Below are positions 25,221 to 28,963 of a DNA stretch of 64,000 nt, piece by piece. The stretch's first letter is position 1. Each line of letters begins with the position of its first letter. Origin of the DNA: Synergistales bacterium (GTDB taxonomy: Bacteria; Synergistota; Synergistia; Synergistales; JAFGMB01); assembly GCA_963666205.1 (NCBI GenBank), contig OY762654.1:2144001-2208000 (forward strand), read 5' to 3'. The translations under genes were made by a program, and so were the position numbers. The notes under the pieces were generated by a model, which saw only the letters and a program-made list of their open reading frames with translations, was not told the DNA's origin and did no database searches.

Positions 25221-27986
25221 TTATTTTTTTGCAGAAATACTGTAACCCATTCTTTTCATAAGTTTCAGGGCTTCGAAGGTTCCCAGGAATATAGCTCCAG
25301 CGCCAAGAACGTACATGAAGTCCTTTATGGAAGGAGGCGAAAAATAAAGGAATGACCTTACAAAGGGAACATTGGTCCCGAGATATACCATGAAGATGGA
25401 AAAAATAACGGAGCCTACAAGGACCCTGTTGCTGAAGAAATTGCGGCTGAAGATGGTGTTGAGTTCGTAGCGTCTCGAAAATATGTTGACGAACTGACAG
25501 TATGCCACAGTAAGGTATGTAAGAGTGGTCGCCTTTGCGAAATTTATTGTTCCCATGGCATCCGGGGAAAGGGTTATTCCTGTCCTGGACATGAAAAATC
25601 CGAAATTTCCAAAGGCAAGGATGCCGATAAGGGTTCCAAGGAATAACACCTCAAGGGAGCTGGAAAGGTTCATTATATGTGCATTGAGATCACGAGGGGG
25701 CTCATGCATTATTCCTTCAGTCGGTGGATCAAATGTCAGAAATGTAAGGGGCATAACTTCGGCCAGGAGGTCTATGGCAAGTATCTGTATTGCCAGGATA
25801 GGTATTGGCCAATTCCAGAGAGCGACTCCCAGAAGTCCCAGGAGAACGATCACGAGCTCCGCCACGTTGGTCGTCATGGAAGCAATGACTGTCTTTTTCA
25901 GGTTATTGTAGATAGTCCGGCCTTCCCTGACCGCTTCAACCAGAGTGGGGAAACTGTCATCCAGAAGGATGAGCTCTGCTGCTTCTTTGGCAACGTCCGT
26001 TCCTGTCATTCCCATAGCTACTCCTATTGCCGCCCTTTTGAGGGCCGGAGCGTCATTGACCCCGTCTCCGGTGACGGCAACAACTTCTCCCTGGGCCTGA
26101 AGCAGCTTGACTATACGCAGCTTGTCTTCAGGTGCTACCCTGGAGAAAATGACAGAATCTGTTGCTAAAAGTATCTCTGTCAGTTTCGCATCATCCATTT
26201 TCTCCATTTCCGCACCAGTATATACTGGAGGTTCCCCTTCACTGGAGAGGCCTATCTGTTTTCCCACGGCCTGGGCTGTTATGGCATGATCTCCTGTCAT
26301 TATAATTATCCGTATGTGAGCCTCATGACAGCTTGCAACAGCTTCTTTGACACCTTCTTTGGGAGGGTCGATCATACAGACAAGGCCCAGGAAGACTACA
26401 TCCTTCTCTGCTTCTTCCATGGTGTAATCTCTTCCATTTGCTTCAAGGGGACGGAAGGCTATGGCAAGAACCCTAAGCGCTTTTTTCGAATAACTTTCAT
26501 TCAGGTTTCGGATATACTTTTTGTCTTCTTCGGTTATTGGAAGGATCTTTCCATCCCTGTAGATGGATCTGCTGATGGCAAGGACGCTGTCAGTCGCTCC
26601 TTTAAGGGCCAGTTCCCGGCGGTTTTTGAACTGCCGTACGGAACTCATGAGTTTACGTTCTGAATCGAAGGGAAATTCCTTCAGTTCCGGATTTTCTTCG
26701 TCTTCCCGAGGACTCCTGGTCCCCAGCTTTGTGGAAAGGGTTATCAGGGCTGCTTCGGTAGGATCCCCAATGGGGTACCATCCCGGGTGTTCATCGTCTG
26801 CAGGATGGATCTCTGCATTAGATGCCATTGTGGCTGCATCCATCATTATTTCAATCTCATCTATCTGTTCCTGTGTAAGGGATTTTTCATTTTCATCGAG
26901 GATATCACCTTCAGGGGCATAACCTATTCCGGTAATCTTATATTCTTTTCCATCGAACCAGAGGTTTGTGACTGTCATTTCATTTTTGGTAAGGGTTCCC
27001 GTTTTATCCGTGCATATGACGGTGGTTGACCCCAGTGTTTCCACAGAGGGAAGGTTCTTGACCACAGCTTTGCGGTCGGCAAGCCTTTTGCTTGTTGCTG
27101 AAAGGGCTACCGTGACCTGCGCTGGCAGAGCCTGGGGTACTGCCGCTACAGCGACACCAAGGGCATAGACCATGCTCATGAAGAAACTGAATCCCTGCCA
27201 TAGTGCTATTCCAAAAAGAGCTATACTGATCACTATTACAATGCTTGTGAGCCATTTTGCGAGAATTCCAAGTTCCTGCTGAAGAGGTGATCTTACTGCC
27301 GTTGTTTCCGAGGTCATACTTGCTATTTTGCCCATTTCAGTGTGCATGCCGGTTTCCACAACAAGACCGAGGGCTGTTCCTGTTGCTACGGTAGTTCCCA
27401 TATATGCAATGTTTTCCCGATCGGCAAGAACGCATTCTTCAGTAATGATCATGCTTGTTTTTTCCTGGGATGTGGATTCCCCGGTGAGGGAAAACTCGTT
27501 TGTCCTGAAATTGAAAGCTTCCAGTATCCTGGTGTCTGCCGGTATTTTATCCCCGGCTTCCAGCATTATTATGTCTCCGGGAACAAGAAGATCCTGTGAT
27601 ATCTGCTGAAGTTCTCCGTTCACCCTTATCTTGGCAGGAGATTGTATAAGTTTCTGAAGGCTTTCAAGGATCTTTCCGGCTTTATACTCCTGGGTAAATC
27701 CTATAATGGCATTAACGAGAACAATGATAAGCATTACCGTCGCATCACGATAGCTTCCTATGATGAATGAGATAATGCCTGCTGCAATAAGGACCATAAC
27801 CAGAAGGTCCTTGAACTGCATAAGGAAGATCAGCCACTTGGGAAGGGTTATGTCCGTCGTGATCTGGTTTGGCCCGTATGTTTTCCGACGCTTTTCTGCC
27901 TCTTCCCGGGGAAAACCCTTTTCAGTCGAGCCCAGAGATTCCAGTGCATCCTTCGCATGCATCCGATAATATTCTTTATTATCCAT
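25221..27986 (-). CDS. P-type IIA cation (Ca2+)-transporting ATPase
   Basis: LTGES, ICTDKTGTLT, GDPTEAAL, MTGDH and TGDGVNDAPAL motifs. Confidence 0.95.
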   Translation of the reverse strand: MDNKEYYRMHAKDALESLGSTEKGFPREEAEKRRKTYGPNQITTDITLPKWLIFLMQFKDLLVMVLIAAGIISFIIGSYRDATVMLIIVLVNAIIGFTQEYKAGKILESLQKLIQSPAKIRVNGELQQISQDLLVPGDIIMLEAGDKIPADTRILEAFNFRTNEFSLTGESTSQEKTSMIITEECVLADRENIAYMGTTVATGTALGLVVETGMHTEMGKIASMTSETTAVRSPLQQELGILAKWLTSIVIVISIALFGIALWQGFSFFMSMVYALGVAVAAVPQALPAQVTVALSATSKRLADRKAVVKNLPSVETLGSTTVICTDKTGTLTKNEMTVTNLWFDGKEYKITGIGYAPEGDILDENEKSLTQEQIDEIEIMMDAATMASNAEIHPADDEHPGWYPIGDPTEAALITLSTKLGTRSPREDEENPELKEFPFDSERKLMSSVRQFKNRRELALKGATDSVLAISRSIYRDGKILPITEEDKKYIRNLNESYSKKALRVLAIAFRPLEANGRDYTMEEAEKDVVFLGLVCMIDPPKEGVKEAVASCHEAHIRIIIMTGDHAITAQAVGKQIGLSSEGEPPVYTGAEMEKMDDAKLTEILLATDSVIFSRVAPEDKLRIVKLLQAQGEVVAVTGDGVNDAPALKRAAIGVAMGMTGTDVAKEAAELILLDDSFPTLVEAVREGRTIYNNLKKTVIASMTTNVAELVIVLLGLLGVALWNWPIPILAIQILAIDLLAEVMPLTFLTFDPPTEGIMHEPPRDLNAHIMNLSSSLEVLFLGTLIGILAFGNFGFFMSRTGITLSPDAMGTINFAKATTLTYLTVAYCQFVNIFSRRYELNTIFSRNFFSNRVLVGSVIFSIFMVYLGTNVPFVRSFLYFSPPSIKDFMYVLGAGAIFLGTFEALKLMKRMGYSISAKK

Positions 27987-28158
27987 ATCTATCCTCCCGA
28001 GGTTTCTCTAAACCTGCCCGATGGTTAGTCTGGTAAAGCTTTAAAAGTGTTCTTATTCTAACCATAGGTTTTGGACTTATCAAGAAAAGTTTCCTGTATG
28101 TCAGTCAGATGTGCAGGATCGGGAACTGGAGATCGGTGGGGAGTAGAGATAAAAAAAT

Positions 28159-28186
28159 AAGGGACCATCCCCTGGGACAGTCCCTT
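28159..28186 (-). terminator. Intrinsic terminator after rhodanese gene
   Basis: Minus strand aagggactgtccc-ag-gggatggtccctt followed by attttttt. Confidence 0.8.
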
Positions 28187-28192
28187 CAGCAG

Positions 28193-28211
28193 CTTTTCCG
28201 TCCAGGAAAAG
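28193..28211 (-). promoter_or_regulatory. Putative bacterial SECIS hairpin (rhodanese)
   Basis: Minus strand CTTTTCC-TGGAC-GGAAAAG begins 12 nt after the TGA at 28226-28224 and is separate from the terminator. Confidence 0.65.
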
Positions 28212-28217
28212 AAATTA

Positions 28218-28613
28218 TCAGGCTCAGGAAGAGCAGCCAGCCTGGATGGGAAGGTGAGCTTTATTACAGGACATGCCACCCTTAAGAGAGCAGGCATTAA
28301 AGCCAAGTATCCTCATTATTCCAACAAGCTGACCTGCTGTCTGCCCGGAATAGCAGATGGGTATGACTTTGCAGTTTCTGGGTATATCGTCAAGAAATTC
28401 TCCGACCTCTGCCCACGGTATATTTACAGCACCTTCTATATGGCCTTCCTGAAAATCTTCGGGTTTTCTGATGTCGAGGAGAAAAAGATCTTCTCCCTTT
28501 TTTATTTCTTCTTCCAGTTGTTCACATGTTATCAGGTTATTGCAGCCCCTTTTGAGATCTTCAAAGTAACTTTCAACAGCTTTGCCTAACGATGGTTCCA
28601 TTACTGTCTGCAT
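28218..28613 (-). CDS. Rhodanese-like sulfurtransferase, probable selenoprotein with C-terminal C-S-S-U-A
   Basis: LDIR...F..GHIEGAVNIP, active-site ICYSGQTA and SLKGGM. The 3' end reads TGC TCT TCC TGA GCC TGA TAA and is followed by a SECIS-like hairpin. Confidence 0.8.
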
Positions 28614-28681
28614 ATTACTTAACCCCCTCGGTTAACTGGTTTGTCGAAATATAGATAATATTTTCACTTTAGGTATCAAGT

Positions 28682-28700
28682 GATATTGATAATCAATATT
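28682..28700. promoter_or_regulatory. Fur-box-like operator upstream of rhodanese
   Basis: GATATTGATAATCAATATT is a 16/19 match to GATAATGATAATCATTATC; inner ATATTGAT-A-ATCAATAT is a perfect inverted repeat. Confidence 0.7.
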
Positions 28701-28845
28701 TACAATAAAGAGAAGGAAGTGTCAAGGTAAATTTAACAGTATATACACCTGCCCGTATATCTTTCTCTTCAAAGGTCTAGACATAGTCTTTACGGGTATG
28801 GGTATATTGTTTTGGGAAGGATCCAATTCTGAGGGGAAAAAGAAT

Positions 28846-28876
28846 GAGAAGGCCGGGAACGTGAACCGGCCCTCTC
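28846..28876 (-). terminator. Terminator after AlaDH-like gene
   Basis: gagaaggccgg ... ccggccctctc with an A-run on the + side (U-tract on the minus strand). Confidence 0.6.
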
Positions 28877-28963
28877 ATGATCATAAGGCAGATGTAACCC
28901 CAATCGTTTCGGATATCGGAAAAGTAAAGCTGATATCTTTCTTCTGTTTCAAGGGTTCTGATT

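Follow-up and report, generated by a model that had tools for sequence, protein, structure and literature searches.

At the 3' end of a small rhodanese gene in a Synergistales bacterium, the codons read GGC TGC TCT TCC TGA GCC TGA TAA. The gene lies on the minus strand of a stretch of 64,000 nucleotides (GenBank assembly GCA_963666205.1, contig OY762654.1, positions 2,144,001 to 2,208,000 of the forward strand), which is called the window below and whose own numbering is used throughout. The question raised by this locus is whether the first TGA ends the protein or is decoded as selenocysteine (Sec, U). A sequence-only reading of the window had proposed a cryptic C-terminal CxxU tail lying on the apparent stop, together with a Sec insertion sequence (SECIS) that lies within the 3' untranslated region (3' UTR). 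The comparative analysis described here indicates that the gene is probably a genuine selenoprotein gene whose apparent stop UGA is decoded as Sec (we put the probability at about 0.85) and that its family is in none of the catalogues checked. The family is made up of proteins from Synergistota and Bacillota anaerobes and is described by the active-site loop CY[ST]GQ[ST]AGQ and the C-terminal pattern C-x(0-2)-U-x(1-2)-stop.

Results

The gene end, a 7-bp hairpin with a UGGAC loop 12 nt past the first UGA, a separate terminator and an intact CYSGQTA loop, on which the proposal had been built, are all present in the sequence (Table 1). The open reading frame (ORF) has 129 codons upstream of the first TGA (28613 to 28224), and its 129-amino-acid product is a rhodanese by Pfam (PF00581, E 1.5e-13, 51.5 bits against a cut-off of 22.2). 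Beyond this TGA a single Ala codon (GCC, 28223-28221) precedes the second TGA (28220-28218) and the TAA (28217-28215), and the product would therefore end ...C127-S-S-U130-A, with 131 residues, if the first TGA were read as Sec.

The conservation of the UGA was determined in orthologous loci, namely 10 strong matches among 61 related genomes and 24 loci with a tail Cys among 80 contig loci taken at one genome per species. Removal of four duplicates reduced these 34 loci, from the phyla Synergistota and Bacillota, to 30 distinct 3' regions. The first in-frame stop was TGA in all 34 loci (30 distinct), 0 to 2 codons past an invariant tail Cys. In the 10 strong orthologues the TGA stood two codons after this Cys, with one or two sense codons between it and a real stop, and each of the 24 tail-Cys loci (L047-L070) also had TGA as its first stop, giving 21 CxxU, 2 CxU and 1 CU tails. 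The remaining 56 of the 80 loci were tail-less; 54 of them had a stop in view, which was TAA or TAG in 53 and TGA in one. TGA accounts for 35.5% of stops in the genome of the window; in the flanks of the loci its share is 53% for Synergistota and 12.9% for Bacillota. Two loci (L052 and L070) are labelled Bacteroidota (a metagenome-assembled genome of Prevotella sp. and Lutibacter sp. B2, respectively), yet by sequence they fall among the Synergistota and Bacillota forms; these labels could stem from mis-binning, from contamination or from gene transfer.

A real stop followed the UGA after one or two sense codons in 30/30 distinct loci, against a background of 4-20% of ordinary genes in which a second in-frame stop falls at codon 2 or 3. 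This second stop was TAA in 15 loci, TAG in 8 and TGA in 7, and the first stop was always TGA. Long-tail Synergistota forms have Gly-Ile past the UGA, coded GGC ATC, GGC ATT, GGA ATA or GGA ATC, and such synonymous variation is the hallmark of a translated peptide under selection. The tails of these forms (L048, L052, L023, L051, L053 and L059) read C-C-D-x(4-5)-C-x-x-U-G-I or C-D-[VI]-D-x(5-7)-C-x-x-U-[GS]-I, with one or two extra Cys between the conserved tail Cys and the Sec.

The ICYSGQTAGQ loop of the window rhodanese is intact, and residues C87, Y88, G90, Q91, A93, G94 and Q95 were invariant in sets of 26 and of 30 homologues. In the 30 DNA-derived sequences C87, C108, C127 and U130 were all invariant; position 108 is Tyr in a few database homologues. 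Among 60 database homologue proteins, 49 end C-x-x, C-x or C, three end C-x-x-[A/T]-V, seven have no tail Cys and one fragment was dropped. Their public records carry the label 'rhodanese-like domain-containing protein' and sequences cut at the UGA. One homologue (P0007, protein record only) ends ...CSC. Another family member (P0114, 155 amino acids) ends ...AECGT, presumably followed by UGA, and has an N-terminal hydrophobic segment resembling a signal peptide; some members may thus be exported.

The rarity of the arrangement within the genome was determined over all stop-to-stop frames of at least 100 codons. A TGA stop with a Cys in the last three codons, a second stop at codon 2 or 3 and a hairpin following the SECIS rules occurred in 2 of 6291 frames, one of them the window gene. 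The other match (G000:C1:495250, minus strand; L138) is a glycosyltransferase-like ORF of 307 amino acids ending ...PFCS TGA TCG TGA, with a weak 5-bp stem containing G-U pairs, and was judged to be a chance match.

Tandem pairs were found at three loci, L067 (2517-3349), L068 and L136: about 45 nt downstream of a Sec-tailed copy (TGA, one codon, stop, hairpin) comes a paralogue that ends ...CETAV-TAG. In the Sec-less paralogues the Sec position is occupied by Ala or Thr, and the DNA of one of them (P0047) shows the TAG followed immediately by a terminator, the CUCC/GGAG hairpin being absent. In the protein tree the three Sec-less rows formed one clade (100/99 support) nested within the Sec-tailed rows, and two tail-less rows were likewise nested, indicating that the tail is ancestral to the group and was lost a few times. 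The tandem Sec-tailed and Sec-less genes may represent a pair of selenium-dependent and selenium-independent isoenzymes.

The window hairpin consists of seven perfect pairs between CTTTTCC (28211-28205) and GGAAAAG (28199-28193), closed by the loop TGGAC (28204-28200), which starts 19 nt past the UGA. Since only one codon (Ala) separates the UGA from the real stop, the hairpin lies wholly in the 3' UTR. A SECIS past the true stop works in Escherichia coli for rat thioredoxin reductase 1 (TrxR1), which ends Sec498-Gly499 (PMC3834832; this and the other articles cited by PMC number are used from excerpts). The energy of the window hairpin is -6.2 kcal/mol as a perfect stem and -6.7 kcal/mol in a 37-nt fold, and the folding z-score of the 106-nt 3' region is only -1.81; the case is therefore carried by the comparative data and not by the fold of a single sequence.

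The bacterial SECIS (bSECIS) model described in a review of May 2026 has a loop of 3-9 nt, an upper stem of 4-16 bp, a G in the first two loop positions (mostly G[G/U]), a distance of 16-37 nt from the UGA to the loop and a minimum free energy (MFE) of -7.5 kcal/mol or lower (PMC13188914). The hairpins of the window and of the family follow this model in loop size, stem length, loop G and spacing. In the family, the loops are of 3-5 nt, start 16-22 nt past the UGA and have G[G/U] at loop position 1 or 2 in 30/30 loci; the loop is GGU in eight, GUU in five, AGUU and UGUAU in three each and CGUGA, GUC and GUG in two each, with UGGAC, GGA, AGGU, AGUUA and GGC seen once each. The SelD and GrdB SECIS elements of the window genome, with gaps of 10-11 nt, stems of 6-7 bp and GGC/GGU loops, share their geometry with the rhodanese hairpin, which is of lower stability.

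An energy-ranked search for perfect stems in the interval 7-17 nt past the stop revealed a hairpin of -3 kcal/mol or better in 24 of the 30 tail loci, compared with 8 of the 53 3' flanks of tail-less relatives; shuffling lowered the count to 1.23 of 30 on average and to at most 4 in any of 200 shuffles. When pairing was counted by a script with the hairpins anchored on their loops, stem positions 1-4 were paired in 119 of 120 cells, with two or three pair types each. For positions 1-6 the count was 169 of 180 cells; exchanging the 3' arms among sequences lowered it to 120.9 +/- 4.7, and 0 of 2000 swaps matched the real count. In the 12 sequences of identical geometry, 89.3% of cells were paired versus 74.6% after shuffling and 50-63% in slid registers, and the covariation score was 0.522 versus 0.227 (0 of 500 shuffles matched), with compensatory changes in four of the seven pairs. 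The sequences are related and the shuffle counts therefore overstate their independence.

RNAalifold predicted 0 pairs on a MAFFT alignment of the 3' regions, in which hairpins of differing loop length were not registered with each other. A covariance model of 19 positions, run with default filters over 200,735 bases, recovered the 12 training hairpins and the L136 hairpin and did not recover those with loops of 4-5 nt. Rfam gave no match in the window at gathering thresholds; we know of no bacterial SECIS family in Rfam.

The machinery for Sec insertion is present in the genome of the window (2.95 Mb, single contig), in which selB (364 bits) and tRNA-Sec (77 bits) were both detected over cut-off. 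The genome also carries selD and two grdA genes, and all three contain a single in-frame TGA. Among holders of the rhodanese gene, selB turned up in 9 of the 10 Synergistota genomes and in all 5 Bacillota genomes tested.

The protein was modelled with AlphaFold2 from 30 read-through homologues. The mean pLDDT (predicted local distance difference test) was 81.6, with about 90 in the rhodanese core and below 50 for residues 118-120 and 124-131, and the tail is thus predicted to be disordered. Foldseek matched the model to rhodanese domains with a probability of 1.00; the nearest solved structures were ordinary single rhodanese domains and the rhodanese domains of coenzyme A (CoA)-disulfide/persulfide reductases. 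A six-residue active-site loop marks sulfurtransferases. The Pfam match over the gathering score, the predicted rhodanese fold and a catalytic Cys opening a six-residue loop are together what is expected of a competent rhodanese domain.

The rhodanese gene has a terminator on both sides, and a candidate promoter upstream of it was read by eye (Table 1); a consensus promoter scan of the window did not list this TTGACA/TAAATA candidate. A perfect 8+1+8 palindrome, ATATTGAT-T-ATCAATAT, at 28699-28683 of the minus strand overlaps its -10 region. The closest relative, with 95% protein identity, retains it, and it may serve as an operator to which some regulator binds. Directly downstream of the rhodanese terminator lies a gene for a P-type cation ATPase of 921 amino acids (25221-27986, minus strand), which is apparently complete and in which no in-frame TGA was seen; the selenoprotein catalogue includes a Sec-containing E1-E2 ATPase family.

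RNA contigs from four metatranscriptome libraries of one study contained near-identical sequence, and one piece, spanning 28174-28605, takes in the coding sequence (CDS), both TGAs and the hairpin. Within 27900-28900 the RNA contigs leave gaps at 28138-28171 and 28682-28900; these gaps, and the contrast in depth with the neighbouring gene, carry no weight.

Table 1. Positions of the rhodanese gene and its associated elements in the window
Feature	Positions	Strand	Basis
Rhodanese selenoprotein CDS (predicted), 131 residues, end ...AGCSS-U-A	28221..28613	-	ORF and translation with TGA as U, Pfam, AlphaFold2, Foldseek
Catalytic loop C87-YSGQTA; Cys87 codon 28355-28353	28335..28355	-	Sequence; conservation in homologues
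Tail Cys127 (TGC), Cys of the CxxU motif	28233..28235	-	Invariant in 26 and in 30 homologues
UGA probably read as Sec, U130	28224..28226	-	TGA in 34/34 orthologous loci, 30 distinct
Probable true stop, TGA 28220-28218, with adjoining in-frame TAA	28215..28220	-	Second stop at codon 2 or 3 in 30/30 distinct loci
SECIS-like hairpin CUUUUCC[UGGAC]GGAAAAG, wholly in 3' UTR	28193..28211	-	Folding, genome SECIS geometry, family conservation, bSECIS rules
Intrinsic terminator, 12-pair stem 28186-28159, then T run ATTTTTTTAT	28149..28186	-	Terminator prediction, folding
Putative promoter, TTGACA 28725-28720, 17-nt spacer, TAAATA 28702-28697	28683..28725	-	Read by eye; kept in 95%-identical relative

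Discussion

The conservation found across two phyla strongly supports the proposed CxxU tail on the apparent stop and its 3'-UTR SECIS. Homologues had been named beforehand as the check on this proposal: TAA or TAG was not seen at the position of the UGA, and the hairpin and its spacing were kept, whereas none of the CxxC variants that had been looked for were found.

Several observations weigh against the assignment. Neither the 60 database proteins nor 12 representatives yielded a homologue that has Cys at the Sec position, which is atypical for selenoproteins; the search of representatives is a poor census of Cys forms, since multi-rhodanese proteins dominate it and only seven single-domain rows were among the 150 matches listed. 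The window hairpin misses the MFE rule of the bSECIS model, and only 5 of the 30 family hairpins reach -7.5 kcal/mol as perfect stems; the energy in that model may refer to a longer structure than the one scored here. One locus (L022) has no perfect stem of at least 4 bp and shows a mismatched stem only, and four others have perfect cores of 4 bp next to a mismatch. The presence of selB satisfies a necessary condition and is not a discriminating test, because selB occurs in 55 of the 61 Synergistota genomes; it was not found in one holder of the gene (G003, 86% complete, in 270 contigs). The RNA contigs could include DNA carry-over and are silent on translation. A conserved partner gene did not emerge from Pfam scans that covered 84 neighbouring ORFs at 12 loci and three in the window. 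Small rhodaneses have been tied to thiosulfate reduction in fermentative anaerobes (PMC5497025; PMC3035371), and AsrC (TIGR02912), the sulfite reductase partner in some rhodanese-linked thiosulfate reducers, was not found over cut-off in the genome. Since the gene neighbourhoods are not conserved, the chemistry considered below has no support from context. We infer Sec insertion itself, like every chemical step, from sequence comparison.

For decoding, SelB-GTP-Sec-tRNA(Sec) would bind the small hairpin 12 nt past the UGA. As to function, our tentative preference is for a tail that acts as a redox or sulfur-relay arm on the Cys87 persulfide, by analogy with what is known of the chemistry of rhodaneses and of Cys/Sec tails, that of thioredoxin reductase among them. 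Cys87 would become a persulfide by taking sulfane sulfur from a donor such as thiosulfate, polysulfide or a persulfide carrier. The disordered tail would then swing in and the Sec130 selenolate would attack the Cys87 persulfide; Cys127 would resolve the adduct, giving a Cys127-Sec130 selenenylsulfide, with sulfide released or the sulfur handed on, and a thiol reductant would re-reduce the tail. The sequence-only reading had suggested a flexible arm resolving the active-site persulfide, which appears plausible in view of the predicted disorder of the tail and its invariant Cys and Sec. A wider picture, to be regarded as speculative and somewhat unlikely in its entirety, is that of an obligate-Sec family without a Cys form in which a rhodanese of 130 residues with a selenenylsulfide swinging arm constitutes a minimal, cofactor-free sulfane-sulfur reductase or relay, with a weak 3'-UTR SECIS, a ratio of truncated to full-length protein set by selenium and tandem isoenzyme pairs.

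It is also conceivable, if unlikely, that Sec is inserted and that the C-x-x-U tail serves as a ligand for soft metals or metalloids (Hg, As, Cu, Se), or as a selenium or sulfur carrier for partners, instead of as an arm on Cys87. Sec in the C-terminal 'UXX-star' families may be a metal ligand (PMC13188914), the Cys-Sec spacing varies within the rhodanese family (CU, CxU, CxxU), long-tail variants add Cys (e.g. CCDxxxxxCxxU) and a gene for a CsoR-family repressor lies about 2 kb away in 2 of the 12 loci. However, no metal-resistance or transport neighbour is conserved, and the catalytic loop is strictly conserved along with the tail, which suggests that loop and tail work together.

Decoding of the UGA might, on the other hand, be deliberately inefficient, so that proteins ending ...CSS and ...CSSUA would be made in a ratio set by the selenium supply and the tail would act as a selenium-dependent switch. 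The hairpin is weaker than the SelD and GrdB SECIS elements of the same genome, and stopping at the UGA costs two residues only and leaves the folded enzyme. This explanation is purely inferential, and the fact that the tail is strictly conserved speaks for the Sec form as the product under selection; we consider such a switch improbable.

If the first UGA were a plain stop, the protein would end ...AGCSS and the hairpin would be a conserved 3'-UTR element acting in mRNA stability, in regulation or as an accessory to the terminator. The weak hairpin and the missing Cys/Sec pair agree with this, as do the public gene calls, by which most database homologues (49/60) end at or just past the tail Cys, and the frequent use of TGA as a stop in this genome. 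A plain stop nevertheless leaves unexplained that TGA occupies the position in every locus, including 16 loci from Bacillota, in whose flanks only 12.9% of stops are TGA, that an in-frame stop is always met at the second or third codon, that Gly-Ile past the TGA is kept through synonymous variation, that a loop and spacing of the SECIS type occur in 30/30 regions and that hairpin and TGA were lost jointly in the TAG-ending tandem paralogue. Plain termination is thus very improbable, and decoding as Sec is preferred.

That both UGAs are Sec codons, giving ...CSSUAU before the TAA, as the sequence-only reading had also entertained, is hardly tenable: nothing beyond the two TGAs directly ahead of TAA favours it, whereas the 95%-identical closest relative reads TGA GGC TTA TAA (Leu at this position), the position holds a sense codon or any type of stop across the family, the second UGA is only 6 nt from the stem as against 8-15 nt for the decoded UGA, and in L024 reading past the same second TGA would give a long, unconserved extension. 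The true stop is most likely the second TGA of the window, which the TAA right after it reinforces.

Relation to known systems

The family combines two things that are known separately, rhodanese selenoproteins and C-terminal Sec tails, and is absent from the catalogues checked. No NCBIfam family (release 20) scored over its cut-off for the window protein. A rhodanese with a C-terminal Sec is not listed in NCBIfam or in the excerpts of the 2026 selenoproteome review and of the deep-Sep supplements. The excerpted deep-Sep supplement text contains none of the tail or loop motifs. For Aminobacterium sp. MB27-C1, deep-Sep gives 13 known and no new selenoproteins, and no rhodanese is listed in that text.

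The review distinguishes five rhodanese-like selenoprotein forms: UxxS (PF00581), UxxG (COG0607), CxU (NF041203, rhodanese_LYCAU), a further UxxG (form 4) and UxxxxU (TsoB, NF045694) (PMC13188914). Catalogued rhodanese selenoproteins resemble the window protein in being bacterial, sulfurtransferase-like proteins of rhodanese fold that occur in anaerobes and are decoded by UGA and SECIS. In the three representatives compared, excerpted from supplement 3 of deep-Sep (...YCGGVTU..., ...IYUAIGGRS... and ...LYCAUPNE...), Sec lies in the active-site loop, whereas in the window protein the catalytic Cys loop is intact and Sec would lie at the C-terminus. Two of the catalogued families were considered for the window protein and rejected. 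It scores 23 bits against a cut-off of 115 for NF041203 and has CYSGQ where the LYCAU representative has its Sec loop; for the rhodanese/DsbD fusion TsoB (NF045694) it scores 24.4 bits against a cut-off of 805 and is a single domain of 131 amino acids. If the assignment is correct, the family would be a sixth rhodanese selenoprotein form, in which the catalytic Cys is kept and Sec is carried on a disordered C-terminal tail.

The UXX-star and other families with a C-terminal Sec have in common with the window gene a Sec followed by one or two residues and a stop, a SECIS past the CDS and a protein that looks complete without Sec. According to the excerpted review the UXX-star families (Haft & Tolstoy 2025, as cited there) belong to other folds and families than rhodanese, and only the U-x(1-2)-stop tail is alike. 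Two of them, NF041114 and NF041211, are missing from the 14 NCBIfam hits that reached E 0.01 or better. Such genes would escape detection because the protein looks complete without its tail, because searches for Cys/Sec pairs have no Cys homologue to find (none was found here) and because the SECIS lies past the true stop and below the usual energy threshold.

Among small rhodaneses, the RdlA-type proteins of Halanaerobium and Spirochaeta smaragdinae are likewise from anaerobic thiosulfate- and sulfur-reducing fermenters (PMC5497025; PMC3035371, excerpts). Genomes of Halanaerobium and of spirochaetes contain tail-less relatives of the window protein, which end in TAA or TAG without a Cys/Sec tail; RdlA itself was compared by description only. 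The Sec-tailed family is found in thiosulfate- and sulfur-reducing, amino-acid-fermenting anaerobes and may bear on their handling of sulfane sulfur.

The fusions of CoA-disulfide/persulfide reductases with rhodanese (e.g. 3nta, 8a56, 6pfz) bring a rhodanese Cys and a second redox centre together in one polypeptide and reduce sulfane sulfur. Their second centre is a flavin adenine dinucleotide (FAD)/Cys/CoA domain of about 450 residues, whereas that of the window protein would be a Cys/Sec tail of four residues. As a built-in acceptor, the proposed tail would be analogous in mechanism to the GCUG arm of mammalian thioredoxin reductase, likewise a flexible C-terminal Cys/Sec pair with a penultimate Sec. 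In thioredoxin reductase this pair closes to a selenenylsulfide and carries redox equivalents back and forth between a buried centre and the substrate. Thioredoxin reductase is a eukaryotic flavoenzyme with adjacent Cys and Sec and a eukaryotic SECIS, whereas the window protein has no flavin and a C-x(0-2)-U tail, and its partner centre would be the rhodanese persulfide. If the proposed mechanism holds, the family would provide a natural bacterial counterpart of the thioredoxin reductase Cys/Sec arm on an enzyme of sulfur transfer.

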